Shown here: positions 5,069 through 20,533 of the stretch, in pieces
Layout of the letters: every line of letters starts with the position of its first letter
Position numbering within the stretch: the first letter of the stretch is position 1
NCBI RefSeq assembly: GCF_055900595.2
Contig: NZ_CM148325.1
DNA length: 64,000 bases
Reading direction: 5' to 3' (one strand)
Position numbers and translations under genes: made by a program
Notes under the pieces: model-generated
The model's database searches: none
Seen by the model: only the letters and a program-made list of their open reading frames with translations
Told to the model about the DNA's origin: nothing

Positions 5069-6352
5069 ATGACAGAAGCGATGAAGATTACCCTCTCGAC
5101 CCAACCTGCCGACGCGCGCTGGGGAGAAAAAGCAACTTACAGCATTAATAATGACGGCATTACCCTGCATTTGAACGGGGCAGACGATCTGGGGCTGATC
5201 CAGCGTGCGGCGCGCAAGATTGACGGTCTGGGCATCAAGCATGTTCAGCTAAGCGGTGATGGCTGGGATGCGGATCGTTGCTGGGCATTCTGGCAAGGTT
5301 ACAAAGCCCCGAAAGGCACGCGTAAAGTGGAGTGGCCGGATCTGGACGATGCCCAGCGTCAGGAATTGGATAACCGCCTGATGATCATCGACTGGGTGCG
5401 TGACACCATCAACGCACCGGCAGAAGAACTGGGGCCATCGCAACTGGCACAGCGTGCTGTTGATCTGATCAGCAACGTCGCAGGCGATCGTGTGACTTAC
5501 CGGATCACCAAAGGTGAAGATCTTCGTGATCAAGGTTATATGGGGCTGCACACTGTCGGGCGTGGTTCAGAACGTTCCCCGGTATTGCTGGCGCTGGATT
5601 ACAACCCAACTGGCGATAAAGAAGCGCCGGTGTACGCGTGCCTGGTAGGTAAAGGCATCACCTTTGATTCCGGCGGCTACAGCATCAAACAGACCGCGTT
5701 TATGGACTCAATGAAGTCTGACATGGGCGGTGCGGCAACGGTTACCGGGGCGCTGGCATTTGCCATTACGCGCGGTCTGAACAAGCGTGTGAAGCTGTTC
5801 CTCTGCTGTGCGGATAACCTGATTAGCGGCAACGCGTTCAAACTGGGGGATATCATTACCTATCGCAACGGTAAAAAAGTCGAAGTCATGAACACCGATG
5901 CGGAAGGGCGTCTGGTTCTGGCAGATGGCCTGATTGACGCCAGTGCGCAGAAACCGGAACTGATTATCGATGCCGCGACACTCACCGGTGCGGCGAAAAC
6001 CGCGCTGGGTAATGATTATCACGCGCTGTTCAGTTTTGACGATGCGTTGGCCGGTCGCCTACTGGAGAGTGCCGCCCAGGAGAACGAACCGTTCTGGCGT
6101 CTGCCGCTGGCGGAGTTCCACCGTAGCCAGCTGCCGTCTAACTTTGCGGAACTGAACAATACCGGAAGCGCGGCGTATCCGGCGGGTGCAAGTACGGCGG
6201 CGGGCTTCCTGTCGCACTTTGTTGAGAACTATAAACAAGGTTGGCTGCATATCGACTGTTCGGCGACTTACCGTAAAGCACCGGTTGAACAGTGGTCTGC
6301 GGGTGCGACCGGGCTGGGTGTGCGCACGATTGCTAATCTGTTAACGGCGTAA
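5069..6352 (+). CDS. pepB: peptidase B (M17 aminopeptidase)
   Basis: ORF 4982..6352; probable start MTEAMKITL at 5069; M17 leucyl aminopeptidase signature [12 protein letters not shown]. Confidence 0.9.
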
Positions 6353-6359
6353 ACTAATA

Positions 6360-6460
6360 TGCCGGATGCGGCGTAAACGCCTTATCCGGCTTACAAAGTA
6401 TTGTGAATTCAAAAAATTGCGATTCCCTTGTAGGCCTGATAAGCGTAGCGCATCAGGCAC
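6360..6460. repeat. REP/BIME-type extragenic palindromic elements
   Basis: Two imperfect palindromes of the GCCGGATGCGGCG..CGCCTTATCCGGC / TAGGCCTGATAAGCG..CGCATCAGGC type in the pepB-sseB intergenic region. Confidence 0.7.
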
Positions 6461-6494
6461 TTGTGCCCCGAACGTTGAATGAATTGTGGTTCTT

Positions 6495-7271
6495 ATGTCC
6501 GAAACAAAAAACGAACTTGAAGAGCTGCTGGAAAAAGCAGCAACTGAACCGGCGCACCGCCCGGCCTTTTTCCGTACTCTACTGGAATCCACTGTCTGGG
6601 TACCAGGTACGGCGGCGCAGGGCGAGGCAGTGGCTGAAGATAGCGCGCTTGATTTACAGCACTGGGAAAAAGAAGACGGTACCAGCGTCATTCCTTTTTT
6701 CACCTCGTTAGAAGCACTGCAACAGGCGGTTGAAGACGAACAGGCGTTTGTCGTAATGCCCGTTCGCACATTGTTTGAGATGACCCTTGGCGAAACGCTC
6801 TTCCTTAATGCCAAACTGCCAATCGGTAAAGAATTTATGCCGCGTGAAATCAGTTTGTTGATTGGTGAAGAAGGAAATCCGCTGAGTAGTCAGGAAGTAC
6901 TGGAAGGCGGCGAATCGCTGATATTATCGGAAGTCGCAGAGCCGCCAGCACAAATGATTGATTCACTTACCACCTTATTTAAAACCATTAAGCCGGTGAA
7001 GCGTGCTTTTATTTGTTCAATTAAAGAGAACGAAGAGGCACAGCCTAATTTACTTATTGGCATTGAAGCCGATGGCGATATCGAAGAAATTATTCAGGCG
7101 GCGGGAAGTGTAGCGACCGATACATTACCTGGTGATGAACCAATAGATATTTGCCAGGTGAAAAAAGGGGAAAAAGGAATTAGCCACTTTATTACCGAAC
7201 ATATTGCGCCATTCTATGAACGTCGTTGGGGTGGATTCCTGCGTGATTTTAAACAGAATCGAATAATTTAA
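6495..7271 (+). CDS. sseB: serine-sensitivity enhancing protein SseB
   Basis: ORF 6486..7271; start likely MSETKNELEEL at 6495; conserved position between pepB and sseA. Confidence 0.85.
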   Translation: MSETKNELEELLEKAATEPAHRPAFFRTLLESTVWVPGTAAQGEAVAEDSALDLQHWEKEDGTSVIPFFTSLEALQQAVEDEQAFVVMPVRTLFEMTLGETLFLNAKLPIGKEFMPREISLLIGEEGNPLSSQEVLEGGESLILSEVAEPPAQMIDSLTTLFKTIKPVKRAFICSIKENEEAQPNLLIGIEADGDIEEIIQAAGSVATDTLPGDEPIDICQVKKGEKGISHFITEHIAPFYERRWGGFLRDFKQNRII

Positions 7272-7720
7272 AATATGCCGCCCCAAAGGGCGGCATTCGG
7301 GCTTACTTGCTGTTCTGAAGGTTGTTAACCATCAGTAAATTGTTGCCGGAGGGACTCCGGTTATTATTTACCTCGGTTAACAGCGCACCAGAAACAATAA
7401 GTACGATACAGAAGCACCGTATCTTCATTGTGCGGTCCATGCGAAGACCGCATCACGACAGCACCACTGGCGATATTGCCGCGATAGCAAGCGCTGTGGG
7501 GTGCCTGCATTTACGGTCATGGAACATCCTTTCCTAAAGCCAGCGCCCGTTTGCGAGACGGCGAAAAGGGCCGTCACGAATAATACTCTCATATTTGAAT
7601 AATTACTCTATTTATTATCTTGACTTAGCCAGGCATAAAAGAGAGTATTTCAACACTGTGGGGTGCCTGCGTTGCTCCGGCAACACAAGTCAACCTGCTG
7701 GAAAGGCCGCGAACCAGACC
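7272..7720. ncRNA. ryfA: ryfA-like small RNA / possible type I toxin locus; strand and ends uncertain
   Basis: ~500 bp non-coding gap between convergent sseB and sseA, the conserved position of RyfA; flanked by hairpin terminators; contains a 15-bp direct repeat CTGTGGGGTGCCTGC (7494..7508 and 7656..7670) and a small hydrophobic ORF on the minus strand (7303..7440). Confidence 0.35.
7275..7296. terminator. hairpin terminator after sseB, possibly bidirectional
   Basis: Perfect 9-bp stem ATGCCGCCC / GGGCGGCAT with 4-nt loop; the minus strand has a U-rich run immediately after the stem. Confidence 0.55.
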
Positions 7721-7723
7721 AGC

Positions 7724-7757
7724 AATAAAAAACCGCCAAATTTGGCGGTTTTTTATT
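7724..7757. terminator. bidirectional rho-independent terminator downstream of sseA
   Basis: AATAAAAAA-CCGCCAAATTTGGCGG-TTTTTTATT: GC stem flanked by A-run and T-run, directly after the sseA stop. Confidence 0.8.
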
Positions 7758-7770
7758 GCCTGTAAAAAGC

Positions 7771-8616
7771 TTATTTCTCTGGCTCAACCGGTAAATCGGC
7801 CCGTGCGCCCCATTCACTCCATGCGCCGTCGTATAGTTTCACGTTTGGCACATCCAGCGTCGCGAGTGCCAATAAAACCACGGCTGCTGTTACACCAGAA
7901 CCGCAGCTGACGATAATTGGTTTGTCGTAGCTGACACCGCGACCAAAAAATATCGCATCCAGTTCATCGGTCGTTTTTAGTTCGCCTTCACGGACCAGTT
8001 CCGTCCACGGAACGTTCAATGCACCGGGAATATGTCCGCGACGTAAACCTGGGCGAGGTTCATCAACTTCTGCGTTAAAACGTGTAGCCGGGCGGGCATC
8101 AATAATTTGCGCCGTATTTTCATGGCTTGCCAATAATACATCGGTTACTTTCACCACGGCTTCAGGATTAAACGCGGCGTTAAACTCTCCTTCCGGCAGC
8201 TCTACTGCGCCTTCTTCTAATAGCAGATCATCACGCTGCCAGCCTGCAAGTCCACCACCCAGAATCGACACTTTCTCTACACCAAAGGTGCGCAGCATCC
8301 ACCATGCGCGTGGGGCTGAGAAAAGATTACCTTCGTCATAGACAATCAGGTGCTTATCCTGGTTAACGCCTAACTCACGCATTGCAACGGCGAACGTTTC
8401 CGGGCGCGGCAGCATGTGCGGAAGCGGGGAAGTGTGATCAGAAAGCGCTTCGATATCAAAAAACACTGCGCCGGGAATATGTCCATTCAGATACTCCTGG
8501 GCAACGTTACGATCTTCCTGTCCAGGCGGTGCCATGCGGGCATCGATAATCTGAATTTCCGGGTCATCAATATGTTCGGCGAGCCAGTCGGCTCCTACAA
8601 ACCATGTCGTGGACAT
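7771..8616 (-). CDS. sseA: 3-mercaptopyruvate sulfurtransferase (tandem rhodanese)
   Basis: ORF 7771..8628; likely start MSTTWFVGADW at 8616; active-site motif CGSGVTA. Confidence 0.9.
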   Translation of the reverse strand: MSTTWFVGADWLAEHIDDPEIQIIDARMAPPGQEDRNVAQEYLNGHIPGAVFFDIEALSDHTSPLPHMLPRPETFAVAMRELGVNQDKHLIVYDEGNLFSAPRAWWMLRTFGVEKVSILGGGLAGWQRDDLLLEEGAVELPEGEFNAAFNPEAVVKVTDVLLASHENTAQIIDARPATRFNAEVDEPRPGLRRGHIPGALNVPWTELVREGELKTTDELDAIFFGRGVSYDKPIIVSCGSGVTAAVVLLALATLDVPNVKLYDGAWSEWGARADLPVEPEK

Positions 8617-8821
8617 AGGCATCTCCATTTTTGCCGGGTTAGGCTAAATTGTCGGATGTTTGGTGAAAAGCGACAAGCAAAAGAGGCTGATTTGGCTGTC
8701 TGAGCCACAATTCTCACTAAAATTCGGATTCCATGAGCGCGATACTGAATTACATAACGTAAATTCTCACGCATAATAATTATTCGACGTTGCTAACGGG
8801 CCATTGTGGCAGGGATGAAAA

Positions 8822-11800
8822 ATGAAAAAGTTACGCGTAGCCGCCTGCATGCTAATGCTGGCGCTGGCAGGGTGCGACAACAACGATAACGCGCCAACAG
8901 CGGTGAAAAAAGATGCACCTTCTGAAGTTACTAAAGCGGCATCTTCAGAAAACGCGAGTTCAGCAAAACTCTCTGCACCGGAGCGACAAAAACTGGCACA
9001 ACAGAGTGCCGGTAAGGCGCTGACATTGCTGGATCTGTCTGAAGTCCAACTCGATGGCGCAGCCACGCTGGTGCTGACTTTCTCTATCCCTCTCGACCCG
9101 GATCAGGATTTCTCGCGCGTTATTCACGTCGTCGATAAAAAGAGCGGCAAAGTGGATGGTGCCTGGGAGTTGTCAGATAATCTTAAAGAGCTGCGTTTAC
9201 GCCACCTCGAGCCGAAACGTGATTTGATCGTTACTATTGGCAAGGAGGTCAAGGCACTCAACAACGCAACCTTCAGTAAAGATTACGAAAAAACTATAAC
9301 TACCCGCGATATCCAGCCGAGCGTCGGTTTTGCCAGCCGTGGTTCGCTGCTGCCTGGAAAAGTTATTGAAGGGCTGCCGGTAATGGCGCTCAATGTTAAC
9401 AATGTCGATGTTAACTTCTTCCGTGTTAAGCCAGAATCTCTGCCAGCATTTATTAGCCAATGGGAATACCGAAATTCGCTGGCGAACTGGCAGTCAGACA
9501 AACTGCTGCAAATGGCGGATCTGGTTTATACCGGACGTTTTGATCTCAATCCTGCGCGTAACACCCGTGAAAAATTATTGCTGCCGCTGGGTGATATCAA
9601 ACCGCTTCAGCAGGCGGGTGTGTATCTGGCTGTGATGAATCAGGCTGGACGTTACGATTACAGTAATCCCGCGACGCTGTTTACATTAAGTGATATCGGC
9701 GTATCGGCCCACCGTTATCACAATCGTCTGGATATCTTTACCCAAAGCCTGGGAAACGGCGCGGCCCAGCAAGGAGTTGAAGTCTCATTATTAAATGAGA
9801 AAGGGCAGACTCTGACTCAGGCAACCAGTGACGCCCAGGGGCATGTGCAGCTGGAAAATGATAAAAACGCGGCATTACTGTTGGCGCGTAAAGACGGTCA
9901 GACAACGCTACTCGATTTAAAACTTCCGGCGCTGGACTTAGCAGAATTTAACATTGCTGGCGCGCCAGGCTATAACAAACAGTTTTTCATGTTTGGCCCG
10001 CGCGATCTTTATCGCCCGGGTGAAACAGTCATCCTTAATGGTTTATTGCGTGATGCAGACGGTAAAGCGTTGCCCGATCAACCCATCAAGCTGGACGTAA
10101 TTAAACCCGACGGGCAGGTACTCAGGAGCGTCGTTAGTCAGCCGGAGAATGGCCTCTATCACTTTACCTGGCCACTCGATAGTAATGCGGCCACCGGCAT
10201 GTGGCATATCCGAGCCAACACGGGCGATAACCAGTATCGGATGTGGGATTTCCACGTCGAAGATTTTATGCCAGAGCGCATGGCGCTGAATCTGACCGGT
10301 GAGAAAACCCCGTTAACGCCGAAAGATGAAGTGAAATTCTCCGTGGTGGGTTACTACCTGTACGGGGCGCCTGCTAATGGTAATACTTTGCAAGGGCAAC
10401 TTTTCCTGCGCCCACTGCGTGAAGCTGTGTCAGCCTTACCTGGTTTCGAATTCGGCGATATAGCTGCTGAAAACCTTTCGCGCACGCTGGATGAAGTTCA
10501 GTTGACGCTGGATGATAAAGGGCGCGGCGAAGTTTCTACAGAAAGCCAGTGGAAGGAAACGCATTCCCCATTACAGGTTATTTTCCAGGGCAGTTTGCTG
10601 GAGTCTGGCGGTCGCCCGGTGACGCGCCGTGCTGAGCAGGCTATCTGGCCTGCCGATGCATTGCCGGGGATCCGTCCGCAATTCGCCTCGAAATCGGTTT
10701 ACGATTATCGCACTGACAGTACGGTAAAACAGCCCATTGTTGATGAAGGCAGTAACGCCGCTTTTGACATCGTTTATAGCGATGCACAGGGCGTCAAAAA
10801 AGCTGTGTCTGGCTTACAAGTGCGCCTGATTCGCGAACGCCGCGATTACTACTGGAACTGGTCAGAAGATGAAGGCTGGCAGTCACAGTTTGATCAAAAA
10901 GATCTGATCGAAAATGAACAAACACTGGATCTTCAGGCTGATGAAACCGGTAAAGTCAGTTTCCCGGTAGAGTGGGGCGCTTATCGTCTGGAAGTCAAAG
11001 CGCCGAATGAAGCGGTCAGTAGTGTGCGTTTCTGGGCTGGCTATAGCTGGCAGGACAATAGCGACGGTAGCGGTGCTGTGCGACCAGACCGTGTCACGCT
11101 GAAACTGGATAAAGCCAGTTATCGCCCTGGTGATACCATTAAGTTGCACATTGCCGCACCAACGGCGGGTAAAGGCTATGCGATGGTCGAGTCCAGTGAA
11201 GGGCCGCTGTGGTGGCAGGAGATTGATGTTCCGGCACAAGGGCTGGATCTGACGATTCCGGTCGATAAAACCTGGAATCGTCATGATCTTTATTTAAGTA
11301 CGCTGGTGGTACGTCCTGGCGATAAATCTCGCTCCGCGACGCCAAAACGCGCAGTTGGCGTGTTGCATTTGCCGCTTGGCGATGAAAACCGTCGTCTCGA
11401 TCTGGCGCTGGAAACTCCAGCGAAAATACGCCCCAATCAGCCATTAACCGTGAAAATTAAAGCCAGCAATAAAAATGGTGAGATGCCAAAACAGGTGAAT
11501 GTGCTGGTGTCTGCGGTTGATAGCGGTGTGCTGAATATTACTGATTATGTCACGCCAGATCCGTGGCAGGCATTCTTTGGTCAGAAACGCTATGGCGCAG
11601 ATATTTACGATATTTACGGTCAGGTTATTGAAGGTCAGGGGCGTCTGGCAGCTCTGCGTTTTGGTGGCGATGGTGATGAACTGAAACGCGGTGGTAAACC
11701 GCCAGTAAATCACGTCAATATTGTTGCGCAACAGGCGCTACCGGTAACACTCAACGAACAGGGCGAAGGCACGGTTACATTGCCGATTGGTGATTTTAAC

Positions 11801-19304: not shown

Positions 19305-20423
19305 ATGCATAACCAGGCTCCAATTCAACGTAGAAAATCAACACGTATTTACGTTGGGAATGTGCCGATTGGCGATGGTGCCCCCATCGCCGTACAGTCC
19401 ATGACCAATACGCGTACGACAGACGTCGAAGCTACGGTCAATCAAATTAAGGCGCTGGAACGTGTTGGCGCTGATATCGTCCGTGTCTCCGTACCGACGA
19501 TGGACGCGGCAGAAGCGTTCAAGCTCATCAAACAACAGGTTAACGTACCGCTGGTGGCTGATATCCACTTTGACTATCGCATTGCGCTGAAAGTAGCGGA
19601 ATACGGGGTCGATTGTTTGCGTATTAACCCTGGCAATATCGGTAATGAAGAGCGTATTCGCATGGTGGTTGACTGCGCGCGCGATAAAAACATTCCGATC
19701 CGTATTGGCGTTAACGCTGGATCGCTGGAAAAAGATCTGCAAGAAAAGTATGGCGAACCGACGCCGCAGGCGTTGCTGGAATCTGCCATGCGTCATGTTG
19801 ATCATCTCGATCGCCTGAACTTCGATCAGTTCAAAGTCAGCGTGAAAGCGTCTGACGTCTTCCTCGCTGTTGAGTCTTATCGTTTGCTGGCAAAACAGAT
19901 CGATCAACCGCTGCATCTTGGGATCACCGAAGCGGGCGGCGCACGTAGTGGGGCAGTAAAATCTGCCATTGGTTTAGGCCTGCTGCTGTCTGAAGGCATC
20001 GGCGACACGCTGCGCGTATCGCTGGCGGCCGATCCGGTCGAAGAGATCAAAGTCGGTTTCGATATTTTGAAATCGCTGCGTATCCGTTCGCGCGGGATCA
20101 ACTTCATCGCCTGCCCGACCTGTTCGCGTCAGGAGTTTGACGTTATCGGTACGGTTAACGCCCTGGAGCAACGCCTGGAAGATATCATCACTCCGATGGA
20201 CGTTTCGATTATCGGCTGCGTGGTGAATGGACCAGGTGAGGCGCTGGTTTCTACACTCGGCGTCACCGGCGGCAACAAGAAAAGCGGCCTCTATGAAGAT
20301 GGCGTGCGCAAAGACCGTCTGGACAACAACGATATGATCGACCAGCTGGAAGCGCGCATTCGTGCGAAAGCCAGCCAACTGGATGAAGCGCGTCGAATTG
20401 ACATTCAGCAGGTTGAAAAATAA
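19305..20423 (+). CDS. ispG: HMBPP synthase (4-hydroxy-3-methylbut-2-enyl diphosphate synthase)
   Basis: 372-aa ORF; conserved GcpE family sequence with C-terminal Cys ligands. Confidence 0.93.
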
Positions 20424-20533
20424 TAACGTGATGGGAAGCGCCTCGCTTCCCGTGTATGATTGAACCCGCATGGCTCCCGAAATATTGAGGGGCGCGTTGA
20501 GGGTTCATTTTTATATTCAGAAAGAGAATAAAC

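Follow-up and report, generated by a model that had tools for sequence, protein, structure and literature searches.

The 499-bp gap at 7272–7770, between the convergent genes sseB (6486/6495–7271, plus strand) and sseA (7771–8616/8628, minus strand), raises the question of what is encoded there. It lies in a stretch of 64,000 nucleotides (nt) from contig NZ_CM148325.1 of the RefSeq assembly GCF_055900595.2, the whole of which is referred to below as the window. Very probably the locus is a complete orthologue, in Escherichia coli, of timPR (ryfA/ryfB), the enterobacterial type I toxin–antitoxin system in which the ryfA RNA is the mRNA of a small membrane protein, TimP, and a divergently encoded small RNA (sRNA), TimR, serves as the antitoxin. 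The homology, the intact open reading frame (ORF), and the presence and the conservation or covariation of every RNA element are observed for the window itself.

The Rfam ryfA model (RF00126) aligns in full (model positions 1–296 of 296) with 7574..7270 on the minus strand and scores 312.5 bits, its gathering score being 80; only two Rfam families, ryfA and sroE, reach their gathering scores in the 64-kb window. The original prediction, made from the sequence before any search, had taken the ~500-bp gap between sseB and sseA for the ryfA site, had described hairpin terminators at its two ends, and had proposed an Rfam scan as a check, which gave the full-length match above; the hairpins were found as well, one at 7275–7296 that is terminator-like on the minus strand (terminator scan) and one at 7722–7759, a perfect 19+19 inverted repeat (I1) that is the TimR terminator. 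Its guess that a TimP/TimR homologue is present agrees with the Rfam ryfA match, with NCBIfam NF040796 and the RefSeq timP annotation, and with a divergent, terminator-ended sRNA gene. The 41-residue product scores 82.6 bits against the NCBIfam NF040796 profile (toxic_TimP; cut-off 45), residues 1–39 aligning with profile positions 1–39 of 40, and all 59 relatives found in the protein database come from Escherichia or Shigella, nearly all of them named TimP; a 42-residue query from Citrobacter retrieved Citrobacter proteins only. The region 7200–7850 is present in 5425 of 5426 complete E. coli genomes (megablast), and the RefSeq annotation under the match is timP at this site in every E. coli record listed.

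RNA positions are counted here from the first Rfam model position (7574 = 1). The numbering used for Salmonella corresponds to the Rfam numbering minus 2, because there the timP ORF begins at +145 and the AUG of an upstream ORF (uORF) at +53 (PMC7667032, PMC11228461), and this offset places the timP transcription start site near 7572. The two genes, with stem-loops abbreviated as SL, are as follows.

7270..7574, minus strand: timP mRNA (= ryfA RNA), ~300 nt, Rfam RF00126; putative transcription start site at 7572–7574
7303..7428, minus strand: timP coding sequence, 41 amino acids plus stop, MKIRCFCIVLIVSGALLTEVNNNRSPSGNNLLMVNNLQNSK; RefSeq coding sequence in the 100%-identical strain Z0117EC0005; NCBIfam NF040796
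7429..7440, minus strand: in-frame upstream extension MDRT; first ATG, RNA +135, in the SL4 loop and 3' arm
~7655..7754, plus strand: TimR (RyfB/STnc2070 homologue) antitoxin sRNA, ~100 nt; 5' end predicted from promoter spacing

The finding is real but ordinary, given that published work already covers the locus and RefSeq annotates it. The Salmonella enterica system has been the subject of studies by Andresen et al. 2020 (PMC7667032), Eleftheraki and Holmqvist 2024 (PMC11228461) and Eleftheraki et al. 2026 (PMC13000454). For Salmonella, papers already describe the locus with its small protein and antitoxin sRNA, as well as the site of pairing and the switch in translation; ryfA/timP was reported there together with TimR, its divergent repressor, and the pair was stated to be conserved in enterobacteria (PMC7667032). 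With timP routinely annotated in E. coli RefSeq genomes, the discovery value is small.

The 15-bp direct repeat that the original prediction had pointed out, with no link to a mechanism, is exact at both places: CTGTGGGGTGCCTGC stands at 7494–7508 and at 7656–7670, and the repeat extends to 18 nt with one A/G difference, the sequence beyond the 18-nt unit not being repeated. These are the only two matches to CTGTGGGGTGCCTGC in the 64-kb window, even when 2 mismatches are allowed, against 0.16 expected by chance. One copy falls in the timP leader and the other, 7 nt past a promoter-like −35/−10 pair, at the 5' end of TimR.

7494..7511, minus strand: TimR-binding site, RNA 64–81, AAUGCAGGCACCCCACAG; repeat copy 1; 5' arm and loop of SL2
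7656–7673, plus strand: TimR free 5' seed; repeat copy 2

Because opposite strands encode the two RNAs, what is a direct repeat at the DNA level makes the transcripts complementary, and the A/G difference between the copies becomes a G·U pair in the RNA duplex: TimR 5'-CUGUGGGGUGCCUGCGUU and timP 5'-AAUGCAGGCACCCCACAG can form 18 continuous base pairs, 17 Watson–Crick and 1 G·U. The predicted energy of this seed duplex is −38.8 kcal/mol, compared with −19.3 ± 3.3 for 1000 shuffled seeds, and a windowed scan shows that the first 25 nt of TimR pair with timP far better than any later TimR window. Duplexes computed from longer segments are less telling, the full-length TimR/timP RNAduplex (−73.6 versus −66.8 for shuffles) being loose and uninformative and the energies of a matrix of cognate versus non-cognate seeds (−46 versus −33 kcal/mol) being inflated by long windows.

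The arrangement was followed in other genomes by a pattern scan of species-representative genomes with the SL4 pattern, which yielded at least 13 Enterobacterales loci, with no Salmonella among the matches listed, most of which were GC-rich sequences hit by chance; these loci, from Escherichia, Citrobacter, Superficieibacter, Yersinia, Erwinia and Rahnella, are all full-length ryfA by Rfam, and together with the window and a K-12-like strain they make up a set of 15. At 13 of the 15 an 11–17-nt repeat joins the equivalent part of the leader to the equivalent upstream position, with a sequence that differs by lineage (for instance GCAGGCACCCCACAG, GCAAGCGCGTCTCAG, GCACACTCTCGTGCT, AAGCACGACCTCGTGC and GCGCAGACTAGCG). 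A repeat that keeps its position and changes its sequence between lineages amounts to co-variation of the antitoxin and its target, and the 15-bp repeat is the predicted TimR–timP pairing site. For Salmonella, the corresponding 18-nt TimR–timP complementarity has been proven to pair by compensatory mutants and in vitro translation (PMC7667032). A further inverted repeat in the window (I2, 7341–7360/7666–7685) was rejected as a pairing site because both transcripts carry it in the same sense (CUCCGGCAACA).

The small ORF was originally quoted as 7303..7440 on the minus strand, with a hydrophobic core and no clear Shine–Dalgarno (SD) sequence. The ORF exists as quoted and the hydrophobic core is there, the Kyte–Doolittle means over 11 residues being 2.1–2.9 in the first 8 windows and falling below zero in the tail, but the timP start codon is the second ATG, at 7428, and not the one at 7440. 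Profile position 1 of toxic_TimP aligns with the second Met, at which the RefSeq coding sequence also begins, so that the product starts with MKIRCFC; the basic MKIR is followed by the hydrophobic CFCIVLIVSGALL, a signal-sequence-like pattern. The remark on the SD sequence holds for ATG 7440, whereas ATG 7428 is preceded at 8 nt by a weak SD, GGA at 7436–7438, which lies sequestered inside the stable hairpin SL4, a feature known from Salmonella (PMC11228461). The present analysis thus fixes the timP start codon, and the MDRT extension at 7429..7440 is probably untranslated, as judged from the sequence. Disruption of the ORF in close relatives, which had been named at the outset as a possible objection, was not seen: the timP ORF is intact at 15 of 15 loci in six genera, with 38–41 codons and indels in multiples of 3, and starts at RNA +147 to +149, except for Citrobacter amalonaticus, where a leader deletion brings it to +123. 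The N-terminal half changes mainly synonymously (9 synonymous and 3 non-synonymous differences between Yersinia and the window in the first 20 codons), and the C-terminal tail diverges freely. The uORF at RNA +55 (31 amino acids in the window) was set aside as unconserved, with GTG or other codons in the K-12-like and other sequences; in Salmonella the timP uORF was shown to be dispensable (PMC11228461).

The leader upstream of this start codon carries the elements through which translation of timP is controlled in Salmonella, where the switch has been described in terms of a pseudoknot and SL4 (PMC11228461) and of four pairing sites, 1 to 4 (PMC13000454). In the window they lie as follows.

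7529..7568, minus strand: SL1 (Rfam structure); helices 1–2 are 95–100% paired in 15 sequences
7539–7545, minus strand: pseudoknot site 1, CGCUGGC, RNA 30–36, in SL1
7513..7518, minus strand: site 2, GACCGU, RNA 57–62; complementary to site 4
7488–7507, minus strand: SL2 (Rfam structure), 98% paired
7452..7485, minus strand: SL3 (Rfam structure)
7465–7471, minus strand: pseudoknot site 3, GCCAGUG, RNA 104–110, in the SL3 loop
7432..7451, minus strand: SL4, GCGGUCU-UCGCAU-GGACCGC, 7-bp stem, with GGA 7436–7438 in the 3' arm
7446–7451, minus strand: site 4, GCGGUC, RNA 124–129, 5' arm of SL4

Over the whole leader, 96.2% of the pair cells in the alignment of the 15 sequences are standard pairs, compared with 36–50% when the partners are slid. 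The SL1–SL3 pseudoknot forms 7 of 7 pairs in the window and is 97.1% paired in the 15 sequences, 3 of its pairs having changed in both partners, and G35/C36 and G104/C105 of the window correspond to the Salmonella M2/M2' positions G33/C34 and G102/C103 (PMC13000454). The helix between sites 2 and 4 likewise has 6 of 6 pairs in the window and is 97.8% paired in the alignment (38–58% for slid partners); there are no double changes in it, so that its support is conservation and not covariation. SL4 is 100% paired, but it served as the pattern by which the loci were collected, and its invariance, being partly by construction, is not independent evidence; the timP start codon itself lies in a further helix downstream of SL4. 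Judged by these complementarities, the published pseudoknot and the site 2–4 interaction are intact in the window. The 7-bp SL1–SL3 pseudoknot is essential for translation in Salmonella; the K-12-like allele (L002) has GCCAAUG at pseudoknot site 3, which places a C·A mismatch in it, whereas the window is fully paired.

In the mechanism that can be proposed for the window, the steps of which are taken from the Salmonella work and applied here by homology, the minus strand would give a ~300-nt mRNA with a structured 145-nt leader and the 41-codon timP ORF, and the plus strand a divergent TimR of ~100 nt that would start ~80 bp upstream of timP. The timP mRNA would be constitutive and mostly untranslated, with its SD sequence and start codon buried in SL4 and SL5. 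Its translation would require a pseudoknot that joins SL1 to SL3 (sites 1–3), along with base pairing between site 2 and the SL4 5' arm, which would free the SD sequence. The first 18 nt of TimR would bind SL2 by base pairing to its 5' arm and its loop, with a preference for the pseudoknot conformer, opening SL2, destabilizing the pseudoknot and blocking initiation, with the consequence that TimP would be made only if TimR falls. TimP, a presumed small inner-membrane protein with an uncleaved, signal-anchor-like N-terminus, would then enter the inner membrane via this N-terminus and be toxic at high levels. Transcript ends, translation, toxicity and repression are thus assigned to the source strain by homology. 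Growth inhibition and membrane leakage upon overexpression of TimP, as well as its inner-membrane localization, have been shown only in Salmonella (PMC7667032), as has repression of TimP translation by TimR in vivo and in vitro (PMC7667032); for E. coli, only expression of TimR is documented, by Northern blot in uropathogenic E. coli (UPEC) CFT073 and avian pathogenic E. coli (APEC) CH138 (PMC13188913).

That a divergent sRNA, TimR, controls the toxin had been carried over from Salmonella in the original prediction, and a divergent gene that ends in a terminator, with a 5' end complementary to the 5' untranslated region (5'UTR) of timP, was found at the place where TimR should lie. The elements of both genes that lie outside the leader are these.

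7671–7684, plus strand: TimR hairpin, conserved and covarying
7697–7723, plus strand: TimR middle stem GCUGG...CCAGC, conserved
7728–7754, plus strand: TimR terminator core, inverted repeat I1
7620..7648, plus strand: candidate timR promoter, −35 TTGACT at 7620–7625, 17-nt spacer, −10 GAGTAT at 7643–7648
7580..7585, minus strand: candidate timP −10, TATTAT, read from the sequence; no convincing −35
7275..7296, minus strand: timP intrinsic terminator, 9-bp stem with 7 GC pairs, then AUUUU

A consensus fold of the 15 aligned TimR sequences has 25 pairs, 5 of them with compensatory change, and the architecture of −35 box, hairpin, middle stem and terminator is kept across genera at 14 loci. CTTGAC, at the −35 box, is invariant in these 14 loci and in the second copy of K-12, a conserved xAxTAT following at a distance of 17 nt, and the timP −10 position is kept across genera as TATTAT, TATGAT or TACACT. 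The helix of the timP terminator (helix 9) is 96% paired in the 15-sequence alignment, with 3 compensatory pairs. For TimR and the timP 5'UTR, no annotated feature was found in the RefSeq E. coli records sampled; TimR is therefore an annotation gap, for which the present analysis gives exact coordinates. Other Rfam families that touch the TimR region (sraL, 32.8 against a gathering score of 39; AgrB; RNAI; IS128; leader families) were rejected as its identity because all score below gathering and are driven by the terminator.

Two side observations concern the same stretch. The TimR middle stem, GCUGGAAAGGCCGC..AACC.GACCAGC, is nearly invariant from Escherichia to Rahnella though it lies outside the seed, which suggests an additional role, for instance in binding a protein or in meeting a structural need. 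Between the genes, a 16-nt inverted repeat (81%; 7582–7597/7634–7649) arises because the divergent promoters share a mirrored (A/T)GAGAGTATT around their −10 regions.

Two narrower alternatives bear on the parts of the system. The direct repeat might have arisen by accident, or be what remains, inert, of a duplication at the site, and play no part in RNA pairing, given that short two-copy repeats often arise by chance and that the timR region is in fact duplicated in K-12-type strains, which shows that duplication does occur at the locus. This is extremely improbable: 64 kb should hold 0.16 matches and not 2, the copies fall exactly on the TimR 5' end and the SL2 loop with no repetition outside the 18 nt, the arrangement recurs at 13 of 15 loci with differing sequences, and the homologous Salmonella site was proven by compensatory mutations (PMC7667032). 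A little less remote, but still improbable, is that the small protein begins at the first ATG, 7440, and has 45 residues (MDRTMKIR...), as in the UPEC study, which describes a 45-amino-acid ORF at +135 to +270 (PMC8205139). This ATG keeps the frame and is found in Escherichia, Citrobacter, Superficieibacter and Yersinia, yet its equivalent is AAG in Erwinia and Rahnella, whereas ATG 7428 is invariant; it falls within SL4, in the loop and the 3' arm, and lacks an SD sequence upstream, and both the NCBIfam profile and the RefSeq coding sequence begin at the second Met. In Salmonella, moreover, mutation of the +145 ATG, the equivalent of 7428, abolished TimP synthesis and toxicity (PMC7667032).

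More weight attaches to the doubts about the timPR reading as a whole, and several points count against it. On the structural side, the site 1–2 helix (RNA 33–37/57–61, 5 pairs possible), which has been proposed to hold the leader in its inactive form and whose register was deduced from the published G33–C57, is broken in the window by C36·A58, and in the alignment 74% of its cells are paired, which is no better than shuffles, with no covariation. The comparison with Salmonella is indirect, made via Rfam, NCBIfam and the numbering of the papers. A consensus promoter scan gave no promoter at the locus at its threshold, so that the promoters were assigned from cross-genus conservation instead, and the timP and timR promoters and transcript ends remain putative. 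The main caveat is however biological and not structural. In UPEC CFT073, ryfA alleles with a destroyed ORF still complement all ΔryfA phenotypes (PMC8205139); in APEC, ΔryfA is attenuated, while the effect of ΔtimR is minimal and both ΔtimR and the double mutant resemble the wild type (PMC13188913); and in Shigella dysenteriae RyfA1 lowers ompC mRNA, and no protein was detected from ryfA1 (PMC5333039). On these findings, regulation may be the more important role of the RNA in E. coli, or the RNA may be dual-function, which would make RyfA mainly a regulatory sRNA (non-coding or dual-function) for stress resistance, fimbriae, biofilm and virulence, with TimR as its partner or titrator and the TimP ORF marginal. 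Binding of ProQ to RyfA reportedly promotes virulence and biofilm formation in APEC, according to the title of one paper. A mainly regulatory RyfA is possible, though on the unlikely side, as the ORF is intact from Escherichia to Yersinia, Erwinia and Rahnella, with in-frame indels and an excess of synonymous over non-synonymous change in its N-terminal half, and the leader elements that control translation (SD in SL4, pseudoknot, site 2–4 pairing) are all conserved. The regulatory and the toxin readings are compatible with each other and differ in which output matters in vivo. The window allele combines an uninterrupted 18-bp seed duplex with an intact pseudoknot, whereas the K-12-type allele is mismatched in both, which makes the former a reasonable candidate for assessing TimP toxicity in E. 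coli.

With the locus read as timPR, its closest counterpart is the Salmonella timP–timR pair, with which it shares the RNA family and the protein family, terminators on both genes, a divergent sRNA that does not overlap timP and is complementary to SL2 over 18 uninterrupted nt at its 5' end, the distance from transcription start to ORF, an SD sequence hidden in SL4, the 7-bp SL1–SL3 pseudoknot and the complementarity of sites 2 and 4. It differs in that TimP has 41 residues in the window and 38 in Salmonella, with a divergent C-terminal tail, in the C·A mismatch of the site 1–2 helix, and in that the window locus directly abuts sseA, whereas STM2534 lies between in Salmonella. The seed is lineage-specific in timPR. 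The C36·A58 mismatch is common to the window, L027 (a divergent Escherichia lineage) and E. whittamii; A58 also makes a Watson–Crick pair, and not a wobble, in the activating site 2–4 helix, and A58 alleles could, on these pairings, be biased towards the translatable conformer.

The S. dysenteriae RyfA1/RyfA2 and RyfB1/RyfB2 RNAs are similar as well, with a ~300-nt RyfA and a ~100-nt divergent RyfB (Fris et al. 2017, PMC5333039), although there are two tandem sibling pairs in that species and a single pair in the window. These RNAs are complementary at 16–17 of 18 nt over a 5-nt "variable region" (PMC5333039), which is the same region that separates the window allele (GGGTG) from the K-12 allele (AAACA/AAGCA); the study read both RNAs as non-coding regulators (PMC5333039). 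The RyfA of UPEC and APEC is the same gene at the same chromosomal site, and TimR is expressed in those strains (PMC8205139, PMC13188913); unlike the present reading, those studies credit the RNA and not the peptide for the phenotypes (PMC8205139, PMC13188913).

In the zorO–orzO, tisB–istR1 and shoB–ohsC systems, as in timPR, a small hydrophobic toxin is accompanied by an antitoxin sRNA gene that is neighbouring and not opposite; activation of the zorO, tisB and shoB mRNAs relies on nucleolytic 5' processing, on standby sites or on both. The timPR system resembles tisB–istR1, shoB–ohsC and zorO–orzO in its ~18-nt pairing in the 5'UTR, far upstream of the ribosome-binding site, with no sequence homology to any of the three. 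For zorO–orzO, a type I pair with a divergent, trans-pairing antitoxin, these features are on record (PMC5333039); for timP, a switch based on RNA conformation alone, with no processing, has been reported (PMC11228461).

Within E. coli the locus is nearly universal, but the window allele is rare. A 651-bp query has at least 99% identity in 12 of 5425 genomes and 80–90% in 4820, the window allele being ~87–89% identical to most E. coli alleles over this length. Flanking identity was compared over window 5700–9350 with the K-12-like strain L002 and with L027. Against L002 the flanks are 92–97% identical (pepB 3' end 92.2%, sseB 95.6%, yfhM 5' end 95.3%). The comparison with L027 gives 96–99% identity for the timP 5'UTR, the promoters and TimR, while sseA, sseB and pepB stand at 90–95% and the sseA–yfhM intergenic region at 88%. 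This mosaic of identities suggests recombination at the timPR cassette.

K-12-type strains carry ~320 extra bp, with two TimR-like genes (J3, L002 1952–2048 and 2274–2373), at a point that corresponds to after about 7654 of the window, which has a single TimR and lacks the segment; Rfam IS128 (RF00125, 262 bits) spans the stretch between the two copies. The seed of the timP-proximal TimR, CGCUGAGACGCGCUUGC, fits an E. whittamii-type target and not its own timP, and that of the distal copy, GCUGUGAAGCACCUGC, fits its own target but for one mismatch. When genomes were typed by window 7480–7525 (target) and 7640–7690 (seed), the window-type TimR seed region was found in 579 of 5426, including O157:H7 and O145:H28, and the window-type timP target 46-mer in only 82 of 5426. 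L027 combines a window-type seed with a target (GCAGACACC) that leaves a C·A mismatch, and the same may hold for O157-type strains. From these frequencies and the L027 mismatch it follows that seed and target are not always perfectly matched within the species. It is a tentative and rather doubtful proposal that TimR seed and timP target are co-diversifying within Escherichia into specificity types that move by recombination, a proposal made because the cassette/flank mosaic, the apparently orphan K-12 TimR and the possible O157-type seed/target mismatch would all fit. If true, the seeds would define non-cross-reacting toxin–antitoxin compatibility groups at one conserved chromosomal site; the allele diversity is at most a modest extension of the work of Fris et al. 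and Andresen et al.

Some minor observations may be added. In C. amalonaticus (L069, ~7870–8340), the deletion takes timR's 5' portion, the two divergent promoters and the initial ~25 nt of timP (SL1), and leaves the timP ORF and the timR terminator, so that this locus looks like a decaying timPR. Elsewhere in the window, the sroE sRNA (Rfam RF00371) lies at 20423–20514 on the plus strand (110.4 bits), and a hairpin resembling a repetitive extragenic palindrome at 6347–6391, in the pepB/sseB interval, matches Rfam naRNA4 (RF02564) with 38.2 bits, below the gathering score of 59.5.

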